64,000 bases of DNA from Cyanophora paradoxa CCMP329 (lineage: Eukaryota > Plantae > Glaucophyta): assembly GCA_004431415.1 (NCBI GenBank), contig QPMI01000010.1:434001-498000 (forward strand). Direction: 5' to 3'. Position 1 is the stretch's first letter. Each line of letters opens with the position of its first letter. The translations under genes and the position numbers were made by a program. Under the pieces are notes generated by a model. That model saw only the letters and a program-made list of their open reading frames with translations. It had not been told where the DNA came from and did no database searches. Positions 4,587 through 60,053 of the stretch are shown here, piece by piece.

Positions 4587-5344
4587 GGCTCTCCTTGCCG
4601 CTGGGCCGCCGCGCGCTGCAGGCCAGGCAGCTCAGGCGCTGGCGGTCCGCTGGCGATGATCGAGCAGGCGCTTCTGATGGTCGAGCAGACGTGCCCGGCC
4701 CGAGCGCATATGCGCTTGAGCTTCAACTCACAATTGCAACTGCTCTCTGCGACTCATGATCGGCTGCGCGTACAAGTGCTGCAGCGCAATCTTCAGCTGC
4801 GGATATCGATGAAGTGTTAAGCGTCAAGGGTCCCCGCAGTGCGGCTGGTCATGATGATGTGCTCAGTTGCAGAGCTAGCGCTAGCTTCTGCGCAGGCGTA
4901 TGCACGTCACACGCAGCACGAGCATGCTCAACGCGGCGTTACGTACTGTCTACACATGTGCAGCGACTCCCGGCGAGGATGTGCTCCCGCACTGCTGCGC
5001 TGACGGAGGCATGCTGCTCCGAGTGCACGCGTAACGTTAACGTGACGGCGACTGTGCTGATGAGACTCCAGTGACTCCAACTCCAACTCCGTCGACGAAC
5101 ATTCATGCCATTGTTGTCCCGCTGCGCTCGTTCGCACGTGACCAACTTGGCAAAGTTGGCACTCGCCGAGTCGAGCTCCGGATCCCCGGTCGAGCTGGCG
5201 CGGATCACGGAGCTGCGGTAGTGCGCAGCCTGGCATGCGCACTGCAGCTGGCTGGCTGCGCAATGCCGCAAAGGGCGGCGAGTGCTTACGCAACTCAGCT
5301 CAAGACATCCAAGCAGAACCTCGGATCCGTGTTTCATTTCAACC

Positions 5345-5416
5345 GTCGCTGTAGTATAGCGGTCAGTATACCTGCCTGTCACGCAGGTGACCCGGGTTCA
5401 ATTCCCGGCAGTGGCG
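5345..5416 (+). tRNA. trnD-GUC: tRNA-Asp (GUC)
   Basis: 72-nt cloverleaf: acceptor GTCGCTG/CAGTGGC, anticodon arm CCTGC-CT GTC AC-GCAGG, T-loop GTTCAATTC, followed by a TTTT Pol III terminator. Confidence 0.95.
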
Positions 5417-7459: not shown

Positions 7460-7531
7460 CGCCACTGCCGGGAATTGAACCCGGGTCACCTGCGTGACAG
7501 GCAGGTATACTGACCGCTATACTACAGCGAC
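7460..7531 (-). tRNA. trnD-GUC: tRNA-Asp (GUC), identical second copy
   Basis: Exact reverse complement of 5345-5416. Confidence 0.95.
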
Positions 7532-7816
7532 GGGTGAGAAATAGATGTCGTTTAAGGGTTCCGCTTTGAATTTTGGCACTTTCGTGGAGGACTCGGTCTA
7601 AGAGCCGGCGGGGCCGCAAGTCCGGAGACTAGGCTAGGAGCTCCTTGTGACCGGGTCCTGGAGTCGGGCGGCACAGCAGCAGCACGCGGCATCTATCGGA
7701 CAAGCCGCTGAGCGTTGTTGTCGACAGCGCCCGCTTGGTAGGACCACGCGCGGAGGCGCCGGCGGCCCGCGGGCGTGGCGTTGGCCGGCCGTGGGAGTGA
7801 CAGCAGCTCTGCGAAG

Positions 7817-30453: not shown

Positions 30454-33400
30454 TCACGCGCGGCGCGCGACGAGCAGAGAGGCGAGAAGCCCGGCAACGG
30501 GGCCCAGAATATTCATTGCGCCGAATTCGATCGACGCCGCGGTCGACAGGGCCGAGGAGCCGCCGGCGGCGGCGGTGTAGGCGCCGAGCTTGAGGGTGCG
30601 GGCGGCCACGGTCGCCTGCACGGCGTCGGCGAGCGCCTTGCCCGTCGCGTAGGCGCCGCCGCCGCCGAACGAGGCGGCGACGAGGAGGCCGCTGCCGGTG
30701 CAGGAGATGCCGGCGATGGCGACCTGCGAGCGCGAGACGGGGCCCTTGAGCGCGTTGACGGCGACGTACAGCGCCCCCTCGACCTGTCGACGTCGTTGTG
30801 AAGAGTAAAGCGTTAATGAAGAAGGTCAGAGTATACGTAAATTAATGCAGCTGTTGTGGATAATTCGCAGCCGCGCCAAATTAAAGGCGCACGTCAAGAA
30901 GGCCGGAGGGGAGGGAGGCCATGTACGACTCGCACTGGGCTTGGGTCGCCTCGAAGCGGATGGAGAGCGCCGCGGGGGTCGCCTGCACGGCCGCCGCCGC
31001 CGCGACGGGCGGCGTGTACGTGAACGTGCCCGGCGCGTACACCTTGACAACCGGGTCCGCGACGCCCGAGGCCTTCGCGCCGTTGACCTGCAGCGGAGAT
31101 TCAAATTCTAAATCATTATCAGAGCGATTGAAACTAAATTTAAGTCTATATTGTGCTCACGGTGACTTGGCCGGCGTTGACGGCCGTCTTGAGCGCCGTG
31201 AAGAGGGCGGAGGAGCCGACGGAGCCGGTCGTGCCGCCGGCGGTGATCTGGTCCCGCACGACGACGCCAAAGGCGCCCGTCGTGGCCAGAAGGCGGCGGG
31301 CGGCCTTGCGCCTGGGCACACAAATGAGAAAAGCATGCGGGAAATTTTGTATACGTAGAGTGTGACTGAGAAATTACACATAGGGATACCCCTGATCCAA
31401 GCCCTCCGGCCTTCGGCCTACAGGCTTGGATCAGGGGTATCCCTATGTGTGCGCGTTTCAGGTACTAGGGTAGTAAGCATTTATTTCAGGTCTTAGGGTA
31501 TTAATCATGTCTTTTTGGCACCAGTATGTTGGCCGCCTCTGGGGTATTGAACACATGAGTTTGGCATCAGCAGGGTGAATGGGGTGAACGGGTTGTTTGT
31601 ATATTTTCTTAGGAAAAATGCCTTCTCACGGGAATTTATACAAACAACCCGTTCACCCCGTTCACCCCGTTCACCCCGTTCACCCAGTTCACCCCGTTCA
31701 CCCTTACACCCTTTACACCCTTTACACCCTTTACACCCTTTACAATCTTAACAATCTTAACAATCCTTAACAACCTTTACAGATGTCTCATCCTGCCCTC
31801 CTCCTTGATCTCGTGGAAATTGCTGGAGCTTCATAGGTCTCCTTTGAATTCGAGAAATCTCTATACCACCTTACTGCCTCTGCTCCCCTGCTAATCTCTC
31901 TGTTCCCGCCACCCTCAATCTCTCCAACTCTCTCCCTTGTTTCTTCTTCTTCCCTGCTCTGTCCTCCAATAATGGTTTATCTGGCACGTTTGGCGCCCTC
32001 TCAATCCCCTCTCTGGCCAAAAGTCGCTCTGTTCTGGCCTCTTTCTTTGCCTCTTCAATGACATTTATTGATGGCGCCTCCAAGAACTCCACGGTTTCCA
32101 CTTTCTGTAATTCGTAGTGGGCATAAAGTCGATCTATTAGTTTGCCAGAAATGTCCCTTAGTTTAAATTTGAACCCCTCCACTCCTTCTATTGTGAATAT
32201 TTCGCGGCTCCAATTATTCCCTTGTTTGGCAAATGGGCTCTTCTCTATTTTAGTTCTCACGTGGCTCCCTGCTGGATAGTCTTTTAGATATTCAATTGAC
32301 TTCATGAATTTCTCGTTTTCTTTTCCGAGTATTAGAGGAACATGTACCTCTGTGGTCTCTGCTGGTTTCATCCCCGTTGCTGAGTGGATGGTATTATTGT
32401 AGTTGTAGGCAAAATCTTGGAGCTTGTCGAAAAACTTTACAGTATTATTCGCTATACAATACGAGTTAATTAGCTTCTTTATTGTGCGATTAAAGGCTTC
32501 TATTCGGCCTTGGCTATTGTGATCTCCAACCTGCGAAACTTGGTGCTCAATCATCTGGGTTTCTAAATGGTCTTTAAATACCTTGTTCAGGAATTCGCTC
32601 CCAGCATCACTTTGTATCTTCACAATTGGACGAGGGACTTGTTGCTCAAGCTCCTTAAACGCGTTCAATGTGCTTTCTGCTGTCTTTCCCCTCATTGGAA
32701 TAATAAAGCCCAGTCTGGTGGTGTTTTCTACAGCTGTGAGGAACGTGTTGTAGCCTTGATTCTGTTTGCTGTATGAGGGAAAGAAGACTAAATCAATAGC
32801 GAATGTATCGAGTGGCTGTCTTATGGGGATATAGGCAGTCTTCTTGGCTGATGGGAGGGGTTTATTTATTTGGTTGATTTCTTGGGCATCATAGAATCTA
32901 CGGATTGTCTTTCTTGGCACATCTGGAAGCTCTTTGGCCAATGAAGCAAGGCCTTTAAATCCTACCTTGGTGTCATAGAATGTCCTTGCTAAGGGATCCA
33001 AGTGGGGCACAGCAATTGCTGTTGGGATGTCTGCTGGAACTAATGCTTTGAGGTCACTCTTTTTCTGAATGCGACCCCCTCTCTCCTCTTGAGGGATTGG
33101 GATTGGCAATATACTCACATCGTACTCTGTTTGTCTGCGTGTGATCTTTGATGACATCTATATTGGGATTAGAAAGCAATCTTTGACATCTTCACATTGA
33201 AGGTCTCATTTTCAAGCTTCTTTTGGACAGTCATTTCGATTTGCTTGGGTTTTTGGTGGAGCACATGGTCTTTATAATCTTGGAAAGACAGATCTGTTTG
33301 AATGGTCTCCTTACAAACACCTGCCAGCTTTTTTATTTCCTCATCATCTGTTTTAATGCTGTAGCATTTCGGCCTTACCCCAGCATATTCAATAATGGTT

Positions 33401-36400
33401 CTGCCCTCAAACTCATCTTTGAACTTGCCAAGCTCTGTGGGGTGGGTGTCAATGTCTTGTAGGTCTTTTGCTATAGTTTTCGAATTTATTTGAAGGCAAA
33501 GCGAATCTGTATCAGTAAAAAGCAGTTTACAGTCTGGCCATTTCCGCTTGATGGTGTTATAATAATAATCAAATAGCCGCAGCTTGGCAAGATCTAAAAC
33601 AACTGCCCCAATTGCTATGGGCTTATCTAACTTGACATTTTTCTGTAGCATTTCGAAGGCTACTGCTGAATCGCTTAGTCTTGTTTCTGCTTTGAGTAGG
33701 GGCGATCTGGCGTATTTCATAAATTGCTTTTCGTTGGTGGCAATCTTGACATTAGACCTTCCTCTCACTTTCTCAATGGTTTTGCCAAAAAGGCTATTGT
33801 TCATGATCTTAAAGAAGTCCTTTTCGGGTTTGGAAGGGGCTGCTTTGCGGTTTTGGGCATTGGATTCGACGTAAGGCTTCATAAAGGCAGCCTGAGTAAA
33901 TGTTAGCACCCTGTGGATTTTGGTGACCTTTAAGCCTTGCGCTACCATGAATTGGAGCAAAGGTTTCGACACCACATAATTACAAATGTCTTCGCAGGCT
34001 GCTTGTAGTCCATCCTCTGCTCTCTTGATAACAAGAGGCAGTTCTTTGTGGAGTTGATGGAGGTGCTGGGGATAATGGATGTCAACTTCTAAGATGGCCC
34101 CCTCTGCTGATGACAGGTCGTAATTTGAGGGTTCTGGGTGCCATTGGAAATTCGAGAGGGGTAGCTTTTGGGATAGGGCATATCCATATAGGTTATTGGC
34201 ATCCAAATATATAATGTGGCTGTCCCTTTCCTTTTTGGCATATTTATGATTCATAATCGAAAGGCCTCCCCTGATCATGCCTTCAACCATGTTGTACATA
34301 TCAAGGTTGGAAAGAAGCTCGATTTTAGGCTTGGTAATAGATAGCATGCTGTCCCACGAAAGCCCTGGACTTGAGACATAGTGGGCAGCATCCATCCCAA
34401 AAGTTTTGTGTGATTTCTGGCGGAAAAGCTGGAACTTTTCCATTAATCCTTCCACGTTCTGGACGCCATAATCAATAAAGTTTTTGATGTCAATGAATTT
34501 AAAGCAACCCCAAGTGATCGACATGTAGTTGTCAAACGATTTTGCGAGGACTTCCACCCTTTTTTCGGGATTTAAGGCGACTGCCTTGAATATCTGCGTT
34601 CCAGATAGGGACAGATCATTGGTCACTATGGGAATCTTGGTGAGATTGCTGGTGCGTCTGTGGAGATTACATTTGCGACAGGCTGAGCCTACAAAATCGC
34701 CTGTTTGATGGTCATGATCCCTCACTTTATAGTTGTCTTGGGAAAACGTACCCTCACAGATGTAGCAGGTTTTAGCAAGGTAATGGGTACGTTTCTGCTC
34801 TTTGGTCAGTGACATTGGGATGTTGGTAAATAGGGCTTTGAATAGCTCTGGGGCTGTGCTGTCGAGGGTACTCAGGAGCTCAAAGATGTTGGAGTGGGTT
34901 TTAGTGAGTACTACTCTATTATTATGAAGAGCTGTCAGTGAGATTGATTTGATCTTGAACATACCAGAAATATCTGTTTCATAATCGAAATAGCAATAGG
35001 CAATCACGGGGAGGAATACAGTCTTTGAGAGATGTTTAAGACCAAATTCAATGAATGTGGGTTGTTTTGGGGTCTCTCCAGCACTTGTCTTCCAATCCAC
35101 ACAACGTTTGCTTTGAATGTGGGATTGAAGCTTCTCCTCAGTCTTGAAGTGGTTGGAACAGGTTTTACAGAAATGGAGTCGCTGCTTATCATTTTTAGCT
35201 AAGACTCTGGACATGCTGAATATTGTGGTATAATGACTGTTACCATTTTCGTCTGTAATTAGCAGCAGATCCACTTGGTGTTTCCTGTTCCTTGAGGAGC
35301 TGTTGTGGAGTAGATTAATTTCTTCTGTAGAGTTAGAGGGGTCGTAAATATTAACAGAGATTGCTGGATTGAGATTTTCAAAGAGATCAATAGTATCAGC
35401 ATCCGCCTTCACAGGAAACTCAATGCCCTCGAAATTTAGTTCTTTTTTGAACCACCTCCTGTATTGGGAAGTCTCATTGCGCTTGTGGCTATTTACTTCG
35501 TCCTTGTGAATATAGCTCAGGATGGAGTATTCAAAGCACCTATTGTCCTTGTTATTAACATTGACAATGGCGCGTTTATTCTTCAGCCACTCAGGCAATG
35601 GAATAAATGCTCCTCCTGAGATTGGCTTAAAGGAGAGAACAATGACCCTGAGGGCTTGGATGCTATCTAATCTGTAGCTATCTGTGACATTAATTTGCGA
35701 CTGGCATTCCTTGGCAAGTTTAGCTGTCTCTTTTGTGAGGATTCGAGATCTTGTCATGATAGCATAGGTGCTGTAAATGTGCTTGGTAATAAAATCTCTC
35801 GAATTATTGGCCTTAGAAAAGCGACAGACAAATGTAAAGCGAGTTTTAATCGACATTTGTGAATTGATGGCATCTTGGAGCCTTGTGTGGAGTTCCTCAG
35901 AGTAGGTGTCTATAAACTCTTGAGTGGTCAGGATCTGGTGCTGAGCTCTGATTGTGAAATCGATGTATTTATTGTTCAGAGCGCGATGTTCATTAATTAG
36001 AGCTGTGTAGTCTTCACCTCTAACCTGTGTGGTCGTGGTCTGTTCGACTTGAATGTGGCCAAGGCGATCAGTCTCATCAAGGGCGTCAATTTTCCCTAAT
36101 AGCTCTCGATTGAGAGCTTGAAGCCCCTTGAGCTTCTTGTTGGTTTGGCTTATGTATGATTCATATTCGCTTTCACTGATGGAGTGGTTCGCAAGGAGGA
36201 AGGCCAGATTCCCGAGAATCTTGTCCTGAAGCTCCTTAATTTGGTAGTGGCTGGGGCGGGGCATGGTTGTGGGGTTGTACTTATATATAGGTACGAAAAT
36301 AATCTTTAAATGCTGCGTAGAATTTGGAAGATTAATTTGTGTGTCTATTGTAGACGAAAAATGGAAACCTTTGATCAGGATTTGGTTGAAACCAAGTTTG

Positions 36401-39400
36401 ACGACGTGGACTCCATGAAATATTTCTACGTTCCACTTGGAGGGGCCAAAGGAAGGGGCCAGTATATGATATGTGATATCGAAGATGCTCCTACAATGAT
36501 GAGATATAACTGGTGTTTGGATGGGGATGGTTATGCTAAGACAAGTGTAAGGCGAGATGAAGGGAAATGGTTGGTATTGTATGCTCATCGATTGATAATG
36601 ACAAATGAACTGAAAGAAGGGTTGGTTGTCGACCATGTGAGCAGAGATAAATTGGACAACAGGAAGTGTAATCTGAGGGTATGCTATCCTTTTGAGAATA
36701 ATAGGAATAGGAGTAAAAGCAGCAATACAAGCAGTCAATATAAAGGTGTTTCTTTCAAGAAACGAGAGGGTAAATGGTGTGCTCAGATTACAATTAATGA
36801 CAAAAGGCTCTCTTTGGGGTATTACAAAAATGAAGCCTTAGCCGCTCATGCCTACAATCAGGCGGCAATTGAACACTATGGAGACTTTGCCGCTCTCAAT
36901 GAGATTAAGCCCGAGGCACAAAATACCGAATAGAATCAGCATTTAAAGAATAAAATCTTACCTATAGTGTAGAGGAACAAGAATTAAAATGGCATACCAT
37001 GCGGCATCTCAAATTGCCTATGTGACTCGTCGCCGTGCTCAAGATCCTGCTTTCCGTGAGAGAATGAAGCTTAATAGTCTGAGGAGCAGATACTACAAAG
37101 GTGACCCCCTTCCCTGTGTGAGGTACCTCTTTGATGAAAGGAGGTGCCTTGTTGGCAGACCAAGGACAGTGGTGTATTGAGGGGGTCGCGAAAAATTGAT
37201 TGTTTTATTTAATGATTCTATAAACTACTTAAGGACAAGGGTGTCAATAGAATCATCAAATTATTTTCTCACCCTATTATAGAATGGCTCCCTCATTCAG
37301 CTCAATCAACCCCAATGGCAACACCTTCATTCTCACTGAGCGCATCCACAGAGGTAACCTCAAATGGGTGGTGGAGAACTTTGATAATCTCCAGTTTCGC
37401 CCTGAAACTGACAAGACCCAAATGAGAGCCATCATCCAGAAATTACTTTCTATCGTCGATCATGAGGGCTACCACACCTGTAAATATAAGCAGGTGAAGC
37501 ACAACACTGGTAGGTACTTTGTGGATGGAAAAACCCCCAGCCTTCAAAGCATCTGTAGGGAAATTCGCCACACCATTTCCAAGGACTACTACTATGACAT
37601 TGACATTGTGAACTGCCACCCTGTCCTGCTTGTTCAGTATTGTGAGAAACATTCAATTGCCACTCCTCAGCTGAACAAATATGTTCAGAGCAGGGATGAA
37701 ATTCTTGATGATCTCTGTGAGGTCACCCAGAAATCCAAGGCTGATGTCAAGCGCAGCATTCTGGCAGTCATCAATGGTGGGCAAGGGGCTGACCTCTCTA
37801 GCCTACTTATCAATCACAAGTACTTCAGTGATCTCAAAGAGGAAATGGCCAAAGTCCATCAATTCATTGGTGGGATTGAGAAGCAGCGCTTCTATGCTAT
37901 TGCTAAGCGCAAGAAAGAAAGCAATGTACTTGGTTCCACCATGAATATGGTACTATGTGACCTTGAGAATCAGGTGTTAATGGCTGCTTGTGAGTACTTC
38001 AGTGCTCTTAAGCTCCATGTGGATGTCTTGGTCTTTGATGGATGTATGATCAGGAAAGACCCCAAAGTATTGAGTGCTTTGGAAGAGGTTAGTGATTATG
38101 TGGAGGGGAAAACTGGCTACAGGGTGACTTTTGTGGAAAAACCTATGACCAGTGGGTTTGATGTACCTGAATGTCAAGCTTCCCTTTCCAACATTGATTA
38201 CAAGACTGCTCCAATTCCTACCAACTGTGATTACATGGAGATCAAGCCCTACATGGATGCCAGACTTGCTCACATTATGAAGCCTGGGTTTGTCTTGTCT
38301 TGGAATGATCATACCAAGAAGTATGACACAACCAGCTTCAAAAGCTTGGCTGAGGATGTATACCCTCACATTCAGTACACAGAGTTTGACCTAATGTCTA
38401 TGAAGATGGAGCCTCATAACTTCATCAAAAAGTGGGCGAAAGATGAGACTGCCACAAGGTATGATTACTTGGACTTCCTCCCACCTCCTGTAAAATCTGC
38501 TTCCACCACTGCCAAGGTGTTTAATGCCTATGCTGGTATGAAAGGTGAGCTTATGGATGTGAGTGAAATGGATATTCCTCCTGATGTAACTGAGGAAGAT
38601 GTTAGCCCATTCCTTGACCACATGATGATTCTCAGTGGTGAAGATGCTTCTACATTCAATTACATACTGAAGTACTTTGCCCACATTATTCAGAGACCTG
38701 GGGAGTTGAATGGGATTTCAATCATCTTCAAGGGAAAGCAAGGAGTGGGGAAGAACATCATATTGGATTGGTTTCAAAATGAAATACTGGGTGGGGACTT
38801 GGCTTTCAGCACAGCCAACCCACTGAAGGACTTATTTGGAAACTTTGCCCACCAGCGAAAGCACAAACTACTTATCACTGTGAATGAGGCAAGTGGCAAA
38901 GACACCTTCACAAACAGTGATGCCCTCAAGGACATGATCACTGCTGAGAAAATTGTAATTGAGGCTAAGTATGTCAATTCTCATGAGGTGAGGAATTTCG
39001 CCAGGATCATATTTACTACCAACAACACCCTACCAATCAAAGTGGAGGCTGGAGATAGAAGGTTTGTGATTGTGGAGGTGAGTGACAAGAAAAAGGGTGA
39101 CATGAAATATTTCAAGGCACTGGGTAATTGGCTGAAGGAGCCAAGAAACCAGCACATGGTATTCCTCTACTTGAAAAACAAGGTGGATGTCACAGACGTG
39201 AACTGGTATGCTGACAGGCCAATGACCAACAGCTACTACCTTGCCCAACAAGCAAGTGTTCCTGTCACTGCCTTGTTCACCAAGGATTTGGTAGACACCC
39301 AAAAGATTACCAAGGATACACCAAGGACTGAGAACAGGCAACAGGTGTGGGAGTGGTTCCAGCAGTTCATTACAATTAATAAATTCAAGAATGAATTCAG

Positions 39401-42400
39401 CTCAAGGAAGTTCTACATTGAGATGGCTGGACTGGAATATGTGAGGCCTACCAAGTATTGTGGAAGGGAGTGTTATGTCTTCAAGTGGGATGAGATGATG
39501 GCTTACTTCAAGAGCTGTGGGCTGTTGGTGGAGTTTTTGGAAGAGGAGGAGGATTAGGGGGGGCTCATGATAGGTTTTTGGGGGGGGTTCAAGACGTCTG
39601 GGGGACCTTCTGGGGGACCTTCATTTTTTACTTTCTGGTTGTTTTATGACCAGAAATGGTAATAATGTATACACATAGGGGGGTTAGGGGACCTAGGGGG
39701 GGATATATAACTCCTATAGCCTCCAACTCTTTTTCATTTTTAAGCAACAAGCCAGAAATATATAGAGTTGTGAGAGAATACCCCCCTACCCACCCAACAA
39801 CCCCCTAATCCCCCCTAGCCCCCACCTTCCAGACTGAGAATGGTAACCTAAACAACAAGACGTCAGTTGGCAGAACCCCCCCCTAACTTCCCCTTGAGTC
39901 CCCTAACCCCCCCAAATCTACCCCACTTGCTTGTAGGCCACCAGCACTTAAGGACATCTTCATATAGCATGGTGAAGAGCCCAAGCCCCCAAGTGCCCAC
40001 CAAAAATTGATTCTTGACACCCCCAACCCCCCAAACAGTCTTACATAAGCCCACCAGTACCACCATGGACTCAGATAGCAGCTATGATGACATCCCCCTT
40101 GAGGACATGGTTGAACTGTGGGAGGCAGTCAGGCAGCAGTATTATGATGAGTATAGGAAGTCCCCCCAAGACATCAACCCCCAGACCTGTAAAGAATTGC
40201 GCAGATTGATGAAGGCATATGAGAACATCATATGTGATAACTATGGCATGGAGGGGTATGCCCTACTCCACAAAGCAAATTTTAGCTGGAGAAAGTCATG
40301 AAAATTGTAAGTACCCCATCTCAAAATCTCCGATTCATCCCTTGAAAATATCACCGTTGGATTCCTCGTAAAAAGTAGATATTTATAGACCCCAATATCA
40401 TAGCCCTAAGATGATCTGGTGACGAGCTACGAATATTTTCAGGTTCGCATATACCATATATATATACCATAATGATATATGTATATGATATATCATAATG
40501 TCACATGACATATATATATATCATAGCTTTTCGGACTCGCCGCGTCATGGCGATCACGGCGCTATAGGTTTTACCGAAACTTGTTTTTTTTTATATATAT
40601 AATATACATATATGAGCCGGCCTACCGTTGACCAGTATACGTAGTCACGCCAGCCAGCCTACCGTAGACCAGTAGGCACGCCAGCCAGCCTACCGTAGAC
40701 CAGTAGGCACGCCAGCCAGCCTACCGTAGACCAGTAGGCACGCCAGCCAGCCTACCGTAGACCAGTAGGCACGCCAGCCAGCCTACCGTAGACCAGTAGG
40801 CACGCCAGCCGGCCTACCGTAGACCAGTAGGCAAGCCCGCCAGCCTACCAGAGAGCGGTAGGCGCTTATTTCCTTATAGAACTCTATAAGAACATTTATA
40901 TTCCATTTAATTGGAGCCACCTAAGAAGCTCATATAATTAAATCGTATAAGACCATATAAGATTTTGGATAAGATTTATATAATCTATTACACTTCTATG
41001 TGAGCGACAATAAGGAGTCTAATAAGGATGGGTTAAATGTGGCGACTCTTGAAAGATTTCTTATAAGAACCTTATAGAGATTGCGCGGCGCAATCTAGAA
41101 GTTGCGCACAGTATGGGCTGCGCAAGCCTGAGATTGCTCCTTGTATGGCCGCGCAACGCTGAGATTGCTCCTTGTATGGCCGCGCAACGCTGAGATTGCT
41201 CCTTGTATGGCCGCGCAACGCTGAGATTGCGCAGCTATTTCCTTATAGAGCTCTATAAGAATGTTTCTAAAACTTTCAATTAGAGCCACTTAAGGAACTT
41301 CAAACGCGAATATCTCGGCACCAGATTGGCCGTTTTGAGCGCTCTTTTTTTTCCTGTGAAGCTCTCATCACGCTCTACGCAGAGCCGCCCCTTTCGCATT
41401 TTTATGCTGCCTAAAAGTAGATTATTATGACAACTCCCATCCATACTCGCCTTGTAGAGGTCTCCTTTGAACTCTCATATTTGGCGCTGACGTCTCCAAG
41501 CTCAGAACTGAGTAACTCCATACATCGCCTCTCTATAGAACTGTACAACCTTGGTCATCGAATAGCCCCCCTGTCTCCACATATCAAAGCAGCTTTACAA
41601 AAAATATCAAACGACCTTCTAATGCTTGGAAACGAGATAAATACCCTCCCTGATGGCAGATAATGTGCTCAATGTAGACGGTTTCCTTGGTACTCATCCC
41701 AAGCGCTGCTTACAGCCTGAGCAAATTGCTCCCCTGTCACCTCTTCAATACTCTCCAAGCTTACCCTTTGCCCCTCAGTTGACCCTGTCCTCAGCACCAC
41801 ATCATAGGGAGACCCACTCCTGGATCCACTTGGGGAGGAAGATCCAATGCTGACGTCAATAGTAGTATCACAACAGCTACATTTATAATTGCTGGTCACA
41901 TGTATATGAAACATATCCAGCAATTGTTGGAGCCATTGCCACATCTTACAAGTAACAGGACAAAATAACTCAGTTGCTGCTCTCAGTGGTTAAAAAGTAT
42001 TTAGCCGGCCTCCCCATTGGCCTCACCACTTCTTTTTGTGCCCTTCGGCGATAATATGATGCCAAGGCTTGTTGTTTCTTAACCTCTCTATATGCTGGGT
42101 CTTCCCTGTATCTTTTTTGGTTTGCTAAAGCGCTCTTAATATAACTCTCACTTACAGGACTATCAACGGTGAACTCAACCAGACTGATGGTATCATCCAT
42201 TTATAATAGAAAAAACGTTTATTTTTTCTCAAAGCCAAACCCGTCGTTTATACACTGTGGGGGCTACGCCTTTGTCCACCTCTGCCTTTGTAGCACCTGG
42301 CTCAATAGTCCCCTTTTGGGTCTTTGTTTTCATTTCATCAACAGCTTGCTCATCGATTTGGGTCTCTTTCTTGGCAATAAACTGTTTATCTGGAATCCCA

Positions 42401-57400: not shown

Positions 57401-60053
57401 ATGGTTTAAGGGTTGGTGGAATTATTGGAGCGCCTTTATTAGTAAATGATCAACCCAATCCAGATGATGTGAATACAAGAATCAGGACATATGTCCCGGG
57501 AATGAATGAGCCTTACATTATCAAAATCAACACAATCATTATCAACCTCACCGTCGGCAACGCCGACTGCAAGAACTCGTGCGCGACAATTTTGCATTCC
57601 TGATTTAATGTGAATTTCACACATAGGGATACCCCTGATCCAAGCCTGTAGAAATCACTATAGATATACTGAGACGTTGCCTGCTGATATTTACGCATTA
57701 TGTAGAAGAACAGATGGAGCAAGACCCCGTATTACTGTCCAAGTAGTCCCAGTAGATAATTTCGGACTTGCTTTCCATTCACTGCCACTTCTTGACACAC
57801 AAGATGACCAATATATTATAAGAGCTACCCAGCAAGGGGCTTACACAGTGATTATGTATGCTGAAAGGAATGATGAAATTGCCAGAGGAAATAGATTTGG
57901 TCAATATCTAACCACAAATTTATACAATCCCATTGGAGGAAGTGATCCTTTGCCTTAAATCTCCAGCAATCGTATTGTTTTTTCTATTCTATTGGTAATC
58001 AAAATGCTTGCCAAAGGTTACCATGTGATGCTTGATTTCCAATTCAGCCAACCAATTAGAGACCATGTGGAGCTCTCTAAATGGCTCATGAATGTCAGTG
58101 AAGACATCATCAAGAAATATGGAATACAGGTTGTCCACAAACATGCTGAGATTTTTGATGGCACTAAATCACCCCCTGGATTCGCTCAGGTATTATTATT
58201 GGATGAAAGCCATTGCTCTGCTCATTGCTACAGTGATCAAGGCATGTTGGCAATAGATATATTCAGCTGTGGAAAACAGGCAGAAAGGAATACAAGTTTA
58301 ATTGCTTTTGAGCTGGAGGAGGAGATAAACAAATATGCTATTGGTTTTGGGGCAGTGATCAAAAAGAGATTACACCACGAGAAGAGGAGGTTTGAGGTTT
58401 AAGAGAGGGTGTTGAGGGTGTTGAGAGTGTTGAGGGTTATATGTAAAAATTCCCGTGACAGAGAATTTTCCTAAGAAAGTTTACAAACAACCCTCAACAC
58501 CCTCAACACCCTCAACACCCCCTGCTGGTGCCGAAAAGACATATTTAATACCCTAAGACCTAAAATAGATGCTTACTACCCTAGTGCTTAAAACGCGCAC
58601 ACATAGGGATACCCCTGATCCAAGCCTGTAGGCCGAAGGCCGGAGGGCTTGGATCAGGGGTATCCCTATGTGTGAAATTCACATTAAATCAGGAATGCAA
58701 AATTGTCGCGCACGAGTTCTTGCAGTCGGCGTTGCCGACGGTGATCATCGAGTCGTCGAACTTGTCCTTGTCGGAGCGGCCGTTGTTGAGCGTGTCAAGG
58801 AGGCTCTTGCGCTCCTTGTTCGGGTTGAACGAGTGCTTCCAATCTTTGCACTGCGCATGCCAAATTAAATTTGAAGACTTCAGCCTCTCACGGTTCGGCG
58901 GTCTCATTTTAGTTTATTTAAAAACGAGCATGAGTGTTCTAAATTAAATTTGATTCGACCGTAATAGTGATCATCATCATCATCGGATGTAATAAAATAT
59001 TCTATCAAGACGCATACCTTGCTCTCGGTGTCGAAGCTCGTGGAGACGGTGGTGGACTGCTCGGTCACGTTCGACTGCACGGCCACCGAAGACTGCGGGC
59101 CGCTGACGCCGGCCGACATCGCCGAGTCCGGCGTGGCGGCAGCGGCGGTCGCGTTCGAGTTCGAGTTCGACGCCGGAGCGGCCGCGGGGGTCGGCGTCGG
59201 CGCCGCGGCGGCCGCGGCCGCGGGGCTCGGCGTGGCGCCTGCTGACGTCGACGATGTCGAATTCGAAGTCGAGGGCGGCGCCGAGCTCGAGGGAGAGGGC
59301 GTCGGCGAAGGCGTCGAGGCACTGGCTGCTGCGGCCTGCGGAGTCGGAGTCGCAGCCGCGGCTTCCGGGACAGCGCTCGGGCTCGGAGATGCGCTCGGGC
59401 TGGGGCTCGGCGAGGCGCTCGGGCTGGGGCTCGGAGATGCGCTGGGGCTTGGGCTGGGGGTGGGACTGGGCGAAGGCGTAGACGTCGGCCCGGCGGGCAG
59501 AATGAAATTGCTCGTATTCTTCCCCGTGTTAGCGCCGTTTGATGCAATAGTGGTGCCAGTTACATCCCGGTAGGCCGTCGACACGCAGCTGATGTTGAAT
59601 TCCTGCGTGTAAGGCCCAGATATGTTCTGCGCATGCGTCCCAAAATAACGTTAGAATAGCCAGTCCTGTATACGTACGTATACATCGTGTACGTAGGGAT
59701 CTTCTCACCACAGTTGTGGTCGTGCTTCCGATTTGGATACACGAACCCGTCTGAGCCACGACGACGAGGCCGGAGTCGTATGGCCCTGCAGGATCTTTGA
59801 CCCCCGTCGGGCTGGAAACGCTGCAGACAGTCTTCACGCTGCAGGCTTTGGATTCCGGGTTGGTGTTGTCAGCCCCCTGCCACGAGACCGTGAGAACGAT
59901 GGCGCTGTATGTCAGGGCCGTCGCCGTCTGGCTCACTGCGTACGCCAAGCGATGATGATCATGAGCTCGCGAATTCGGAGCTCGCATAATATATAAGCTT
60001 GAGGCCTTGAGAAAGAGTGTGCGGGCGGTGGCCAACGCACCTGTCGTGCCCAT
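30454..60053 (-). CDS. Host Ser/Pro/Thr/Ala-rich putative cell-surface (possibly GPI-anchored) protein; one intron (31312-58713) carries the viral element
   Basis: Exons at approx. 60053-60041, 59935-59710, 59620-59018, 58851-58714, 31311-31161, 31087-30893 and 30783-30454. The checked joins are in frame (...ADCKNS|RKAARRLLATTG..., GLLD|VEGALY). (SP)n stalk, RRLL motif, hydrophobic C-terminus GAMNILGPVAGLLASLLVARRA*. Confidence 0.75.
31376..31450. repeat. Left terminal inverted repeat, itself a hairpin (28-bp perfect stem, 19-nt asymmetric loop)
   Basis: ACACATAGGGATACCCCTGATCCAAGCC - CTCCGGCCTTCGGCCTACA - GGCTTGGATCAGGGGTATCCCTATGTGT. Confidence 0.97.
31581..31780. repeat. Left subterminal stem-loop (23-bp stem, 31581-31603/31637-31659) running into 9-10-bp tandem repeats (CCGTTCACC, CCTTTACAC, AATCTTAAC)
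   Basis: Read directly from the sequence. Confidence 0.85.
31871..33157 (-). CDS. Retroviral-type (rve, DDE) integrase of the Polinton/Maverick kind
   Basis: FAIDLVFF (D), IQSDAGSEF (D), SQGRIEAFNRTIK (E), YNNTIHSATGMKP; consistent with the 6-bp TSD. Confidence 0.95.
   Translation of the reverse strand: MSSKITRRQTEYDVSILPIPIPQEERGGRIQKKSDLKALVPADIPTAIAVPHLDPLARTFYDTKVGFKGLASLAKELPDVPRKTIRRFYDAQEINQINKPLPSAKKTAYIPIRQPLDTFAIDLVFFPSYSKQNQGYNTFLTAVENTTRLGFIIPMRGKTAESTLNAFKELEQQVPRPIVKIQSDAGSEFLNKVFKDHLETQMIEHQVSQVGDHNSQGRIEAFNRTIKKLINSYCIANNTVKFFDKLQDFAYNYNNTIHSATGMKPAETTEVHVPLILGKENEKFMKSIEYLKDYPAGSHVRTKIEKSPFAKQGNNWSREIFTIEGVEGFKFKLRDISGKLIDRLYAHYELQKVETVEFLEAPSINVIEEAKKEARTERLLAREGIERAPNVPDKPLLEDRAGKKKKQGRELERLRVAGTERLAGEQRQ
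33169..36264 (-). CDS. polB: Protein-primed family B DNA polymerase (~1031 aa, probable start MPRPSHY at 36264) with C2H2 finger and endonuclease-VII-like Zn insert
   Basis: Motif A YLDANNLYGYA, motif B KIMNNSLFGK, motif C FTDTDS, RPKCYS, KLAGV; N-terminal NKDNRCFEYSIL; FCKTCSNHFKTEEKLQSH; CYIC...RDHDHQTG...ACRKCN. Confidence 0.95.
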   Translation of the reverse strand: MPRPSHYQIKELQDKILGNLAFLLANHSISESEYESYISQTNKKLKGLQALNRELLGKIDALDETDRLGHIQVEQTTTTQVRGEDYTALINEHRALNNKYIDFTIRAQHQILTTQEFIDTYSEELHTRLQDAINSQMSIKTRFTFVCRFSKANNSRDFITKHIYSTYAIMTRSRILTKETAKLAKECQSQINVTDSYRLDSIQALRVIVLSFKPISGGAFIPLPEWLKNKRAIVNVNNKDNRCFEYSILSYIHKDEVNSHKRNETSQYRRWFKKELNFEGIEFPVKADADTIDLFENLNPAISVNIYDPSNSTEEINLLHNSSSRNRKHQVDLLLITDENGNSHYTTIFSMSRVLAKNDKQRLHFCKTCSNHFKTEEKLQSHIQSKRCVDWKTSAGETPKQPTFIEFGLKHLSKTVFLPVIAYCYFDYETDISGMFKIKSISLTALHNNRVVLTKTHSNIFELLSTLDSTAPELFKALFTNIPMSLTKEQKRTHYLAKTCYICEGTFSQDNYKVRDHDHQTGDFVGSACRKCNLHRRTSNLTKIPIVTNDLSLSGTQIFKAVALNPEKRVEVLAKSFDNYMSITWGCFKFIDIKNFIDYGVQNVEGLMEKFQLFRQKSHKTFGMDAAHYVSSPGLSWDSMLSITKPKIELLSNLDMYNMVEGMIRGGLSIMNHKYAKKERDSHIIYLDANNLYGYALSQKLPLSNFQWHPEPSNYDLSSAEGAILEVDIHYPQHLHQLHKELPLVIKRAEDGLQAACEDICNYVVSKPLLQFMVAQGLKVTKIHRVLTFTQAAFMKPYVESNAQNRKAAPSKPEKDFFKIMNNSLFGKTIEKVRGRSNVKIATNEKQFMKYARSPLLKAETRLSDSAVAFEMLQKNVKLDKPIAIGAVVLDLAKLRLFDYYYNTIKRKWPDCKLLFTDTDSLCLQINSKTIAKDLQDIDTHPTELGKFKDEFEGRTIIEYAGVRPKCYSIKTDDEEIKKLAGVCKETIQTDLSFQDYKDHVLHQKPKQIEMTVQKKLENETFNVKMSKIAF
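36361..36933 (+). CDS. HNH-AP2 homing endonuclease
   Basis: AHRLIM...VVDHVSRDKLDNRKCNLR...ENNRN (HNH) followed by SQYKGVSF...KWCAQI...LGYY...AAHAYNQAAIEHYGDFAALN (AP2). Confidence 0.93.
   Translation: METFDQDLVETKFDDVDSMKYFYVPLGGAKGRGQYMICDIEDAPTMMRYNWCLDGDGYAKTSVRRDEGKWLVLYAHRLIMTNELKEGLVVDHVSRDKLDNRKCNLRVCYPFENNRNRSKSSNTSSQYKGVSFKKREGKWCAQITINDKRLSLGYYKNEALAAHAYNQAAIEHYGDFAALNEIKPEAQNTE
36989..37180 (+). CDS. Small basic protein (63 aa), probable DNA binder; paralog of 41970-42200
   Basis: ATG in A-rich context; DPAFRE...SRYY...GRPR resembles DPAYRE...ASYY...GRPAK. Confidence 0.6.
   Translation: MAYHAASQIAYVTRRRAQDPAFRERMKLNSLRSRYYKGDPLPCVRYLFDERRCLVGRPRTVVY
37192..37199 (+). promoter_or_regulatory. 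AAAATTGA octamer (mimivirus-type early promoter motif) upstream of the primase-helicase
   Basis: Exact motif in the intergenic region, ~85 bp before ATG 37284. Confidence 0.55.
37284..39557 (+). CDS. Primase-helicase: PolA-like primase-polymerase (TVpol) fused to D5-like superfamily-3 helicase
   Basis: N-terminal YDIDIVNCHP / KRSILAVINGG / VLVFDGCMI (PolA motifs A/B/C-like); C-terminal Walker A GKQGVGKN, Walker B LITVNEA, motif C IIFTTNN, DRRF. Confidence 0.88.
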   Translation: MAPSFSSINPNGNTFILTERIHRGNLKWVVENFDNLQFRPETDKTQMRAIIQKLLSIVDHEGYHTCKYKQVKHNTGRYFVDGKTPSLQSICREIRHTISKDYYYDIDIVNCHPVLLVQYCEKHSIATPQLNKYVQSRDEILDDLCEVTQKSKADVKRSILAVINGGQGADLSSLLINHKYFSDLKEEMAKVHQFIGGIEKQRFYAIAKRKKESNVLGSTMNMVLCDLENQVLMAACEYFSALKLHVDVLVFDGCMIRKDPKVLSALEEVSDYVEGKTGYRVTFVEKPMTSGFDVPECQASLSNIDYKTAPIPTNCDYMEIKPYMDARLAHIMKPGFVLSWNDHTKKYDTTSFKSLAEDVYPHIQYTEFDLMSMKMEPHNFIKKWAKDETATRYDYLDFLPPPVKSASTTAKVFNAYAGMKGELMDVSEMDIPPDVTEEDVSPFLDHMMILSGEDASTFNYILKYFAHIIQRPGELNGISIIFKGKQGVGKNIILDWFQNEILGGDLAFSTANPLKDLFGNFAHQRKHKLLITVNEASGKDTFTNSDALKDMITAEKIVIEAKYVNSHEVRNFARIIFTTNNTLPIKVEAGDRRFVIVEVSDKKKGDMKYFKALGNWLKEPRNQHMVFLYLKNKVDVTDVNWYADRPMTNSYYLAQQASVPVTALFTKDLVDTQKITKDTPRTENRQQVWEWFQQFITINKFKNEFSSRKFYIEMAGLEYVRPTKYCGRECYVFKWDEMMAYFKSCGLLVEFLEEEED
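40003..40010 (+). promoter_or_regulatory. Second AAAATTGA octamer, upstream of small ORF 40065-40301
   Basis: Exact motif ~55 bp before an ATG in CACCATGG context. Confidence 0.5.
40065..40301 (+). CDS. Hypothetical viral protein (78 aa)
   Basis: ATG in good context, codon style like the upstream helicase, helical acidic/aromatic sequence MDSDSSYDDIPLEDMVELWEAV... Confidence 0.6.
   Translation: MDSDSSYDDIPLEDMVELWEAVRQQYYDEYRKSPQDINPQTCKELRRLMKAYENIICDNYGMEGYALLHKANFSWRKS
40649..40865. repeat. Tandem array A: 7 x 31 bp (GCCAGCCAGCCTACCGTAGACCAGTAGGCAC), each unit with a GCCTAC/GTAGGC stem
   Basis: Five perfect units, two diverged units, plus a partial unit at ~40616. Confidence 0.95.
41128..41230. 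repeat. Tandem array B: 3.3 x 31 bp (CTGAGATTGCTCCTTGTATGGCCGCGCAACG)
   Basis: Three perfect units and a partial unit. Confidence 0.95.
41427..41663 (+). CDS. Hypothetical helical protein (78 aa)
   Basis: ATG ORF with an internal helical repeat (SFELSYL / SIELYNL / SNDLLML); abuts the convergent ORF. Confidence 0.45.
   Translation: MTTPIHTRLVEVSFELSYLALTSPSSELSNSIHRLSIELYNLGHRIAPLSPHIKAALQKISNDLLMLGNEINTLPDGR
41669..41944 (-). CDS. Hypothetical viral protein (91 aa) with CSCC motif
   Basis: ATG ORF at the end of the minus-strand structural block, short AT-rich spacer upstream. Confidence 0.55.
   Translation of the reverse strand: MWQWLQQLLDMFHIHVTSNYKCSCCDTTIDVSIGSSSPSGSRSGSPYDVVLRTGSTEGQRVSLESIEEVTGEQFAQAVSSAWDEYQGNRLH
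41970..42200 (-). CDS. Small basic protein (76 aa) with GRP (AT-hook-like) motif
   Basis: Lys/Arg-rich; similar to 36989-37180. Confidence 0.65.
   Translation of the reverse strand: MDDTISLVEFTVDSPVSESYIKSALANQKRYREDPAYREVKKQQALASYYRRRAQKEVVRPMGRPAKYFLTTESSN
42229..42963 (-). CDS. Hypothetical protein (244 aa), coiled-coil, N-terminal PPKRK (NLS-like); possible virion core protein
   Basis: Long ATG ORF co-oriented directly downstream of the ATPase. Confidence 0.75.
   Translation of the reverse strand: MPPKRKIGIPAGAVGYSGGGNNGSINTDPLKFNGMNEVKPSQQQEDPLNAAYEESFDDKAPQTSTSDQLNISPEASKMKAVGEGARRIIGAADDKGLGLQDLSLTRKGEGLSKESDKVIQSMAGEVTYKTAPTQNIHRVPKAQWDEMTAKLKDLEAKSSALEQYVTEKRERSKLKEMLRKEVFKMGITGIPDKQFIAKKETQIDEQAVDEMKTKTQKGTIEPGATKAEVDKGVAPTVYKRRVWL
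42992..43774 (-). CDS. A32-like (FtsK/HerA) genome packaging ATPase
   Basis: PFRVLAIGKSATGKS (Walker A), LCVVLDDL (Walker B), RGRHSKISIICITQ, IRVNSDY. Confidence 0.95.
   Translation of the reverse strand: MGDLDEFNAGEMINPPFRVLAIGKSATGKSEAVKYWLKQLHDAKKIDVVLVVSGTSFNHFWDKVATLQLGKWDAPYIAKLLDERQEKIEKGEPVNQLCVVLDDLIDNEIVDLTRDKIIGSLYSRGRHSKISIICITQKLRKVSSTIRVNSDYAMFLSAANRKELEAIEEEYNIMRDKDVFYKMFEEYVHSYQFLIWSSADYSVKYFVDKADLVKDFPFPRFHRKPKKKEDELKPPEKEEGRKEVKSQVHSSKLMRYKRGL
43828..45198 (-). CDS. Double jelly-roll major capsid protein (456 aa)
   Basis: Size, beta-rich pattern, motifs GNRISFKLPR...LAFDLPA, LVQRLEITYG, IPVPW...LPLGAL, VEINGQRL, SGYVDL; lies between ATPase and penton. Confidence 0.85.
   Translation of the reverse strand: MDITSTLQRLSLKEALTTPEEAKAFFLDNSLMLGLESKSKPVLVVVNPSNTFENSVGNRISFKLPRYNFCGKLELAFDLPAITFGDADLVRNGYTRPVGALVQRLEITYGSYTYHIPSDFLAHFPLVYYSEDQLAKKKRSMGMLHGIPAHGTNRLGGSFFVEIPVPWLNHYLPLGALSGEMVVTVWFKDVGKGYVETSYGGRTLPKAGDTAIDGDKDDGLGVAPAESVLAHVGQNITTFNLGAPNVEIKITSPRLYMYAVNVSDELFATVIEKVKTTGMAIPALDIGFVDVSDMKAKGLAQPNRVNLSQISGLVYALLVSVRDNANVDKANGSHSVLKTYSNSKDITFTVEINGQRLYATEPIPLLKGAELIADVFKCSNMDKVADRYVLSGLPFCLDGEKAIRNVAQSGYVDLTNSSSSFLTLYMPTDKAIDVNVRALMHSFIIVDKDGLRRINL
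45253..46284 (-). CDS. Minor capsid protein (penton) 1
   Basis: IEVSS...SSFIARLPNIYENVRAVRLVSAEFYNS N-terminus; LFVRVKEL; LSTFSVDIVNAINEPIDFEG..VHLTFEI C-terminus. Confidence 0.82.
   Translation of the reverse strand: MNIDKRRMPVDYIEVSSFNTISGDGPTSSFIARLPNIYENVRAVRLVSAEFYNSIPMVSGETQPGDITIDNSFSIFWSEEFDGAGIDGIPTTRPAAGFEPWKQLIISRKKPIQSHQQLVNVINAKFDDREPEPSIRCKWDESLKRIIFHSEKPFYLAFSVAGNPNQKTIQKLLSAARLLGLDPGRYGNSPIQSQVYNALTDGIFTGERVNGIISSFEPEKTRDSVLFVRVKELGDLVQCGDGLLTGYFHKIVVPDKDYGEHVVYNSTESHPLYKYYNKKMGLSTFSVDIVNAINEPIDFEGQPVHLTFEIRYGEEPAGDPVYEYFKMRMSQSHPTYPIIASFG
46293..47228 (+). CDS. Minor capsid protein (penton) 2
   Basis: VNVDSRDR...SYRVAL...VIYAEIPNS N-terminus; YLYLHVKEL; LTVEFKDYFGDIIDMNGIDNSFQLEF C-terminus. 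Confidence 0.85.
   Translation: MNRLVNVDSRDRSQGETENSYRVALTTPVERPRECRVIYAEIPNSIYNSVGTDHLIVEFTYQDSSVTETVTYNISPLPTGYINQGHFGVTQPYNYGLNYVFYEETIAGKTVAFEFKLFYNPTTYKVEFYSNRFFRIRASNKRIGKLLGLSSTEFQSSFMDDNSPSQSPYRPENFLKYDGKPITLNHPLWGTTFSGSRLSSTPLRYVYYSNKMADMNAEQYLYLHVKELAPFASRHNIVPKSQPQNQGAILRLQLSKDIGGYVYYNGEHGEFIRINDRHLVVRELTVEFKDYFGDIIDMNGIDNSFQLEFIE
47218..48773 (-). CDS. Patatin-like phospholipase fused to F5/8 type C (discoidin) domain, split by a 1-nt frameshift near 48056-48058 (~518 aa if repaired)
   Basis: LSGGGARG, GTSTG, ARATSAAPTYF, IDGA. The patatin C-terminal part (WGILSW...PLINMLM, YYRL, LDDTS) continues in the second frame, then AFTASS...EYLQVAF...STNGINW...KYVRIYP...MRVDFTG. Confidence 0.85.
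48817..56141 (+). CDS. Giant fibre/adhesin-like protein (ORFs 48817-52395 + 52392-56141; ~2441 aa if one gene) with four LamG/ConA-like modules, HxH repeats, 13/26-aa shaft repeats and a phage-fibre-type C-terminal domain
   Basis: Four YLP(L/K/I)(T/S)GGTIT motifs, each preceding a module that ends like E...(F/Y)(N/T)RAL...E....R.YL..KYG. The second module straddles the ORF junction. C-terminus F..KPPV...IHWTAYG. Confidence 0.75.
53118..53740 (+). repeat. Coding tandem repeats: ~6 x 39 bp (PLTSSNVVQEWIA) then ~5 x 78 bp (PKADTETVNSQIALLTSSNTVQGWLI)
   Basis: Visible at both DNA and protein level. Confidence 0.9.
56181..57026 (+). CDS. Putative fibre-associated structural protein (281 aa), paralog A
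   Basis: Intact ORF; shares GLESTE, RVKELRADKNSGVVKTTQLLVTNANF and GYRNDE with the next gene. Confidence 0.75.
   Translation: MGEYNRVQLPVYALGSPAIHFRQHEVSDEIRGLESTERANSGNAFDKNSMIRVKELRADKNSGVVKTTQLLVTNANFQSANGQPDAYGVDIKAFEFDNTRAAAVIRSGGAIIGGGCRVSGMLGSSAAFNDFPDTLPEHADNPQRIRMFLPCGDSPYAFGIIRANVNTQNATQPQGIAGPWKLANQLLPKAIYSMCRSQNGGLEGYTFFVQAVGHGGRGWITRNPATQPNSFDFWASEVGGYDILIFGYRNDEAAWAVANCINPDSQVSNFYNEPFPNDPIP
57046..57958 (+). pseudogene. Paralog B, interrupted by a ~104-bp insertion at 57548-57651
   Basis: The 5' ORF matches the N-half of paralog A. After the insertion, LPADIYALCR...TVQVV...YAERNDE...DPLP matches the C-half of paralog A in a shifted frame. Confidence 0.85.
57548..57651 (-). repeat. 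Inverted copy of the right virus-host junction (71 bp host flank 58674-58744 + 28-bp terminal arm + TGTAG)
   Basis: 57548-57646 is the exact reverse complement of 58646-58744. Confidence 0.95.
58004..58402 (+). CDS. speD: S-adenosylmethionine decarboxylase proenzyme family (short prokaryotic-type, pyruvoyl-dependent), 132 aa
   Basis: GYHVMLDF, F...PPGFAQVLLLDESHCSAHCY (E|SH self-cleavage site), AIDIFSCG. Confidence 0.88.
   Translation: MLAKGYHVMLDFQFSQPIRDHVELSKWLMNVSEDIIKKYGIQVVHKHAEIFDGTKSPPGFAQVLLLDESHCSAHCYSDQGMLAIDIFSCGKQAERNTSLIAFELEEEINKYAIGFGAVIKKRLHHEKRRFEV
58407..58520. repeat. Right subterminal stem-loop (41-bp stem built from GAGGGTGTT 9-mers, 3 mismatches)
   Basis: 58407-58447 is complementary to 58480-58520; the loop matches the left subterminal loop. 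Confidence 0.85.
58599..58673. repeat. Right terminal inverted repeat/hairpin
   Basis: Exact reverse complement of 31376-31450. Imperfect TIR similarity continues inward (31451-~31525 vs ~58524-58598), then patchily to ~31660/58407. Confidence 0.97.

Follow-up and report, generated by a model that had tools for sequence, protein, structure and literature searches.

The element described here bears on the question how small DNA viruses that were integrated by an rve integrase exit from the chromosome and how their replication starts. Terminal palindromes adjoining the target-site duplication (TSD) are described for virophages and for Polinton-like viruses (PLVs) of subtype 4 in Halocafeteria seosinensis. 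In its consulted sections, the respective preprint (bioRxiv 10.64898/2026.07.28.741278) links these palindromes to an rve integrase and to replicases other than pPolB, reports some elements with two replicases as well as PLVs without a protease, and proposes a hairpin-priming model, accidental annealing being offered as an alternative. Group 2 Maverick-Polintons share with the locus described here an rve integrase, a 6-bp TSD, a lipase and a pPolB with the layout TP-vOTU-Exo(EndoVII)-palm. In mavirus (Virophaviricetes), an rve integrase, an exonuclease-reduced pPolB and an SF3 helicase occur together as in our locus, and according to the published sections at hand mavirus replicates with an exonuclease-less pPolB and SF3. 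Furthermore, the Nucleocytoviricota-related PLVs (Zora/VC102, VC134, VC218 and Zephyr) resemble it with a size of 20–30 kb and an NCLDV-like major capsid protein (MCP); in the main text describing them (bioRxiv 10.64898/2026.06.19.733378), rve is common in VC102 and VC218, and TVpol or pPolB occurs together with a lipase in Zephyr. Finally, elements of Cyanophora paradoxa itself, listed in PMC10120064 and PMC12220804, share the MCP family and the gene profile of their group with the element; in the parts consulted, these sources do not name them as a group and describe neither their termini nor how they replicate, and TVpol-S3H is rare.

The window (64,000 nucleotides of a C. paradoxa CCMP329 contig, to which all coordinates refer) contains an integrated element of 27,298 bp (31376–58673), which is almost certainly a Polinton-like virus. 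It is bordered by a perfect 6-bp TSD, GAAATT, at 31370–31375 and 58674–58679, and rve integrases produce TSDs of 5–6 bp. The GC content is 42% in the element and 68% and 62% in the flanks; the ORFs of the element are free of introns, and coding sequence makes up approximately 89% of it. A size in the range of 14–40 kb, TIRs, an integrase and a TSD, which are among the features of Polinton-like viruses in the broad sense, are all present. A reading made beforehand from the letters of the window (hereafter the sequence-only reading) had proposed an integrated PLV with a perfect TSD, and both proposals are borne out by the TSD, the tips, the step in GC content, the MCP, the A32 ATPase and the integrase. 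The insertion probably sits within a short host intron on the minus strand (GT-AG, 31312–58713 including the element). If the element is taken out, a GT-AG stretch of about 98 nt remains between two GC-rich exons, which by eye are joined in a continuous frame.

It is very improbable that the locus is an assembly artefact, in which a viral contig was fused to host DNA and the palindromes stem from fold-back long reads. Small indel errors do occur in the window, for example a 2-nt difference in the host flank at 59174 in four of four runs, and would be in line with such an origin. Against it, the TSD restores a plausible intron, and 20 of 24 runs in the list (from 19 studies and with a single species label) contain at least half of the words of 54000–60000. 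No RNA run was among those listed with this stretch, which has no bearing on expression. In addition, the right-junction sequence was present in short-read contigs of all four runs, where a contig of 99–101 nt covers 58647–58745/7 with 0 differences. This contig comprises 27 nt of the TIR, the TSD and host flank, which is below our bridging rule of 31 nt, and it fits two places. Its ends coincide with a 99-nt inverted duplication, and its depth (168, 37.5 and 80 in the runs X1, X9 and X16) was about 1.5–3 times that of nearby host contigs (67–88, 24 and 26–35, respectively). Because it ends at the duplication and its depth is raised, we read the contig as support for both the right junction and the duplication.

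Contigs of sister elements, which are 90–99% alike, showed depths far above those of the host flanks (more than 1000 in X1), contig depth not being taken as copy number. The element belongs to a multicopy family. Among the contigs listed, an empty allele was not found. The sister contigs of four of four runs have 35 other letters at the position where the window has 57549–57650. This stretch of 102 nt (minus strand), which replaces these 35 nt, repeats the right junction in inverted orientation, with host flank, TSD and terminal arm, and disrupts the second gene of a paralogous pair. Since it includes host DNA, the insertion post-dates the integration. It is arranged as host flank, TSD and arm, followed by the start of the loop in the opposite orientation. 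This order suggests a repair event in which the template was switched within the palindrome. The integration had been regarded as recent because of the perfect TSD and tips; both are confirmed, and at least one rearrangement has been acquired since.

Two one-base frameshifts were detected in the element. In the fibre gene (near 52369), the other form was present at full depth in four of four runs, and this frameshift is probably an assembly error. In the patatin-discoidin gene (near 48055), the other form was found in contigs of two of the four runs. Both may be errors of the assembly, since the host flank likewise shows a 2-nt difference in four of four runs. The ORFs are free of introns, as described earlier, but the description of the element as complete and mostly intact goes too far in view of the inserted junction copy and the two frameshifts. 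A further correction concerns the reduced pPolB discussed below.

The MCP, penton and A32 proteins build and fill the capsid. An A32 packaging ATPase is encoded at 42992–43774 (minus strand; PF04665, E 8e-11, above the cut-off). The adjoining gene (43828–45198, minus strand) encodes a double jelly-roll MCP of 456 aa, as indicated by Foldseek, by Atlas (score 0.98, low recognition) and by the related protein P0001. Foldseek matched it to NCLDV MCPs with E values of 1e-14 to 1e-16, and the first virophage MCP followed at rank 48, well behind these; the model has low confidence (pLDDT 55), and such matches are not diagnostic of placement. Mriya48, HUH and VLTF genes were not recognised in the element, a point of difference from the Nucleocytoviricota-related PLVs. 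Two ORFs at 45253–46284 (minus strand) and 46293–47228 (plus strand) are probable penton proteins (minor capsid proteins), judging from their position and from motifs which we take to be penton motifs. They share 24% identity in a forced global alignment, and neither gave a significant match in BLAST, Pfam, PHROG or PDB. The two pentons named earlier are therefore backed by position and motifs and not by these searches.

The patatin phospholipase is fused to an F5/8 (discoidin) domain (47218–48773, minus strand; Pfam) and is followed by the gene of a giant fibre-like protein (48817–56141, plus strand), which consists of LamG-like (weak Pfam match) and repeat modules. Both are presumably entry proteins. 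Downstream lie an ORF of 281 aa without family (56181–57026, plus strand; Atlas lead 0.83) and its paralogue with 47% identity (57046–57960, plus strand), which is the gene broken by the templated insertion. The last gene (58004–58402, plus strand) codes for a prokaryotic-type S-adenosylmethionine decarboxylase with an ESH motif (PF02675, E 1e-11; PDB 1vr7, E 4e-5). Three small ORFs and an ORF of 244 aa without cysteine (41427–42963) showed no family match. Of the genes named in the sequence-only reading, TVpol-SF3, ATPase, capsid, lipase and the polyamine enzyme, here the decarboxylase, were recovered by Pfam or by folds.

A protease of the adenain/Ulp1 type was not found by family in the 22 main ORFs or in 122 further frames of at least 55 aa, and a motif scan gave two matches, both in non-gene frames. 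A very remote protease is possible among the family-less ORFs. The earlier statement that the element has no recognisable protease is correct for the adenain/Ulp1 type, and has to be qualified for the vOTU domain of pPolB, which has Cys and His. In this respect the element differs from mavirus, as its maturation protease was not found, and also from the group 2 Maverick-Polintons, whose MCPs moreover gave no detected sequence match. Of the features of Polintoviricetes, pPolB (with a degenerate exonuclease) and rve are present, and the adenain/Ulp1 protease was not detected.

Relatives of the MCP are sparse. A word search gave a single match, P0001, which is a Cyanophora paradoxa record with 58% identity, and a profile search gave 7 matches in 1.84 billion representatives, of which 1 was spurious and none was named Polinton. 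P0004 was dropped as an MCP relative, being a low-complexity false positive. The exact MCP sequence is missing from the protein collection searched. For the MCP, the integrase, the ATPase and the proteins P0009 and P0007, no related locus was found in viral contigs, nor was one found for the MCP in prokaryotic genomes; a metagenome scan revealed one weak locus of 1.4 kb. The 58 TVpol-related viral loci included none with the integrase or the pPolB of the element, one that matched the HNH gene and two with weak matches to A32. Taken by themselves, these relatives would make a Cyanophora the likely host.

Published tables hold more. The sequence of P0001 is a row of Table S2 of Bellas 2023 (PMC10120064), where it has an HHpred call as double jelly-roll MCP, and it stands beside a closer Cyanophora MCP, of whose first 50 residues 44 match by eye. 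Table S4 of the same source lists 366 Cyanophora MCP hits, which fall into two unnamed clusters (272 and 94) outside the named groups. For 156 glaucophyte elements, Table S6 of PMC12220804 gives rve in 85, lipase in 89, AdoMet_dc in 66, PF03175 in 49, HNH in 40 and TVpol-S3H in 6, and neither a tyrosine recombinase nor a protease in any; these are counts per group and not co-occurrences per element. The consulted text of PMC12220804 notes discoidin-patatin fusions; of the 156, its PLV MCP profiles pick up no more than 2. Adinto-like proteins in Cyanophora contigs are mentioned in PMC8502044 (sections consulted), and the available text of Barth et al. treats multi-replicase genomes and cites one contig of the Cyanophora assembly. 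The words "Cyanophora", "glauco" and "hairpin" are absent from the main text of Bellas and Sommaruga 2026 (bioRxiv 10.64898/2026.06.19.733378). None of the main texts searched joins the SAM decarboxylase with polintons, as the supplementary Table S6 (PMC12220804) does. In the literature covered, the glaucophyte clade, its ends and this state of pPolB are undescribed; figures and preprint supplements may still show them. The lineage is thus catalogued in published tables, unnamed in the main texts consulted and sparse in databases. Its gene set is for the most part the usual one of the glaucophyte host group, for which the gene list alone is ordinary. Of the proposal of an undescribed lineage with an unusual gene set, the lack of a name and the scarcity in databases remain, whereas the nearest MCPs and the gene profile had already been reported, as had terminal palindromes and double replicases in two preprints of 2026. 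What was not found in print, in the parts of the sources consulted, is, besides a name for the lineage, a group-2 pPolB that has lost proofreading and stands next to an intact TVpol-helicase in a genome with hairpin ends.

The two ends of the element agree in all of their first 83 nt, and over 149 nt they are 95% alike. The first 75 nt of each end (31376–31450 on the left, 58599–58673 on the right) form a 28-19-28 palindrome with arms of 28 nt and a loop of 19 nt. The ends had been described as 75-bp TIRs; they are indeed identical, and the 75 nt represent the hairpin itself, which forms the outermost part of an imperfect TIR of greater length (to 31524 on the left, from 58525 on the right). 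The loop holds an inner stem of 4 bp and a triloop, which reads GAA on the strand that has its 3' end at the terminus. The terminal hairpin has a predicted fold of -38 kcal/mol (z -11.2), and 0 of 200 shuffles were as good, which confirms the hairpin ends of the sequence-only reading. In the Halocafeteria type, palindromes with at least 20 nt per arm lie at the TIR tip beside the TSD and occur together with rve and a non-pPolB replicase; in the element, arms of 28 nt were found at both ends, and rve and TVpol-SF3 are present. It differs from that type, as far as the preprint sections go, by its host, by the length of the palindromes (52 nt in the example there) and by a pPolB, which is still present and lacks proofreading.

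The identity of left and right is limited to the tips, and the ends diverge inward of them. G-rich/C-rich stem-loops with 9-bp repeats are located subterminally on the left (31573–31667) and right (58404–58523); their shape is kept, and the letters of the repeats differ. High-depth contigs carry the left-end letters, and therefore the difference between left and right is probably a family trait. In a sister variant of the hairpin (loose end at 58626; runs X1, X2 and X9, i.e. three of four), the loop is shorter and both sides of one inner-stem pair are changed, while the GAA triloop is kept; this covariation comprises one pair in one variant. Flip/flop variants of the ends were not present among the contigs listed. 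It is likely that the terminal tips act as folded DNA.

The palindromes might also have another meaning. If the element replicated like mavirus, pPolB would prime from a terminal protein, SF3 would compensate for the lost exonuclease, and the palindromes would be signals for the integrase or for packaging, or by-products of fold-back copying. We consider this unlikely. The accidental annealing discussed as an alternative in the Halocafeteria preprint (bioRxiv 10.64898/2026.07.28.741278, consulted sections) speaks for it; the homogenisation of the TIRs, which ends at 83 nt, and the compensatory change in the inner stem of the hairpin speak against it.

The rve (DDE) integrase (428 aa, 31871–33157, minus strand) matched PF00665 with an E value of 1e-5 (26.2 bits, under the cut-off of 32.6) and PHROG transposases down to E 1e-12, and its D, D and E motif stretches can be read. 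It is followed by the pPolB gene (33169–36264, minus strand; the start is inferred, and the longest ORF reaches 36636). The protein contains TP, vOTU and zinc finger domains, an exonuclease remnant with an EndoVII insert, which Pfam recognises, and the palm, a TP-vOTU-Exo-palm layout as given in the consulted part of PMC11071308. Its homologues are of the group-2 type with EndoVII, and those of group 2 Maverick-Polintons and beta-type adintoviruses are about 33–39% identical in the best local segment. The model (pLDDT 60) matched phi29 polymerase (Z 9.5, rmsd 18.4, 354 aligned), residues 97–214 the PolIV little-finger fold (Z 8.3, rmsd 2.6, 98 aligned) and residues 223–353 OTU domains (Z 6.2–7.0). 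The combination of rve integrase and pPolB claimed beforehand is hence supported by PF00665 (below the cut-off), PHROG, the fold of pPolB and its homologues.

In comparison to 120 homologues, pPolB has retained the polymerase motifs A, B and C, the Cys and His of vOTU and the EndoVII motif. ExoII, present in 120 of 120, is missing, ExoI is a variant failing the pattern, and the spacing across ExoIII is 35 aa, compared to at least 125 aa in the 78 measurable homologues. A C-terminal motif, which occurs in 102 of the 120, was found here in none of the three frames. There are several separate deletions, and that all of them preserve the frame suggests from the sequence that they are old. A fusion of pPolB with the integrase or a frameshifted tail was rejected, as the missing motif is in no frame, and so was a loss of TPR2, as the protein still has the region that follows motif B. 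The retained TP-like, vOTU and palm domains and polymerase motifs, together with the in-frame nature of the deletions, would agree with a replication like that of mavirus, and in the available text of Barth et al. pPolB and DDE integrases usually travel together. The loss of the C-terminal motif argues against it.

A second replicase distinguishes the element from the group 2 Maverick-Polintons, as do the short, imperfect TIRs with palindromic tips and the lost exonuclease motifs. It is a TVpol (PolA-like)-SF3 helicase of 757 aa (37284–39557, plus strand; PF19263, E 7e-20), whose helicase part matches 6k9c; in mavirus, by comparison, the helicase is not fused to TVpol. The SF3 motifs are intact, and what we take to be the PolA-like motifs A, B and C are conserved across 11 aligned sequences. 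Between the two polymerases lies a gene for an HNH-AP2 homing-type endonuclease (36310–36933, plus strand; PF13392 and PF00847 at or above the cut-off), which was absent from the earlier gene list of the element. Directly behind TVpol, a G-rich/C-rich inverted repeat (39558–39912) is a candidate replication origin. It holds at 39671–39680 an exact copy of a 10-nt terminal motif, in addition to five copies in TIR-derived sequence; chance alone would give 0.04 in the window. Such a repeat behind TVpol was found downstream at 6 of 42 scorable loci and upstream at 0 of 42, a weak signal, in which near-duplicates are included and 16 of 58 loci were skipped for short flanks. Further downstream, 40641–41230 is non-coding and contains two tandem arrays of a 31-bp unit (7.2 and 3.8 copies); a motif from this region had 0 matches in viral contigs.

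This arrangement could also have originated from a recent composite, in which one module with integrase and pPolB and another with TVpol were joined by recombination or homing, so that having two replicases would be a transient condition of this subfamily. The modules are adjacent and divergent with the HNH gene between them, behind TVpol come the repeat-rich non-coding stretch and the 10-nt copy of the terminal motif, TVpol-S3H is rare among the glaucophyte elements (6 of 156, PMC12220804, Table S6), and comparable cases are described in the text of Barth et al. at hand. The GC content, however, is uniform along the element, and neither an internal TSD nor a second pair of TIRs was found when both were looked for within it. 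A composite origin is thus rather doubtful, and it is partly compatible with a replacement of pPolB by hairpin priming.

We favour, with a probability of roughly 60%, that the element is a multicopy PLV with palindromic tips and two polymerases, in which TVpol-SF3 likely primes from the hairpins and the proofreading-less pPolB is likely being displaced. Priming by fold-back is favoured because the tips alone are homogenised, the inner stem is kept by a double change, and erosion is seen in pPolB and not in TVpol. Each 3' end would fold back into a 28-bp stem with the GAA triloop as cap and so offer a primer. The SF3 helicase would unwind the DNA, TVpol would extend from the folded end, resolution of these ends would fall to the EndoVII domain or the HNH nuclease, and the integrase would then insert the opened duplex ends. 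The chances that the TVpol-helicase is the main replicase are about even. A replacement of replicases looks to be in progress; that a helicase is gained where the exonuclease is lost is a trend known from the sources consulted. Against this reading, the frame of pPolB is open, and the retained polymerase motifs, TP-like domain and vOTU Cys/His are as expected of a working protein-primed enzyme. Further points against it are that mavirus replicates with an exonuclease-less pPolB and SF3, that none of the 58 TVpol-related loci has the integrase or the pPolB of the element, and that free genomes, RNA and virions were not observed.

A more extensive version is hardly probable. According to it, an unnamed glaucophyte lineage, possibly of small relatives of giant viruses, is switching from protein-primed to hairpin-primed replication with the TVpol-helicase as replicase; the shrunken pPolB would serve mainly as carrier of EndoVII, which would cut the cruciform tips like poxvirus resolvases and free the provirus. 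If such a switch took place, it would show a step on the way from protein-primed genomes to genomes with hairpin ends such as poxviruses have. What deserves follow-up is the erosion of pPolB next to a TVpol-helicase that is intact, in a genome with such ends. The multicopy family, the adjacent polymerases and the hairpin variation among sisters make the hairpin model directly testable, in an alga that is likely culturable and has at least 20 public DNA runs.

Some further observations were made beside these. One of the 120 pPolB homologues, P0010 (1644 aa, group 2, cluster of 20 sequences), carries at 776–1069 a TVpol-like domain with 31% identity to the TVpol of the window over 302 aa (E 5e-38), inserted in the exonuclease region at the site of the deletion in the pPolB of the window. 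It may be related to the PolB fusion reported in the consulted part of PMC12721341. G-rich/C-rich palindromes were also seen in TVpol-bearing viral contigs (L016:8–78, L057:12418–12465 and L058:3137–3184), that of L016 lying at the start of the fetched stretch and not at a contig end.

In the right host flank, loose ends occur at 58707–8, and a skip of 161 nt was observed in X9 and X16. The host gene at 58746–59016 seems to be multicopy, as contig depth was raised in some runs. Finally, two inverted tRNA-Asp genes at 5339–7537 of the window (133-nt arms, 99%) bracket 1.9 kb, in which an unexplained open frame of 216 codons is located.
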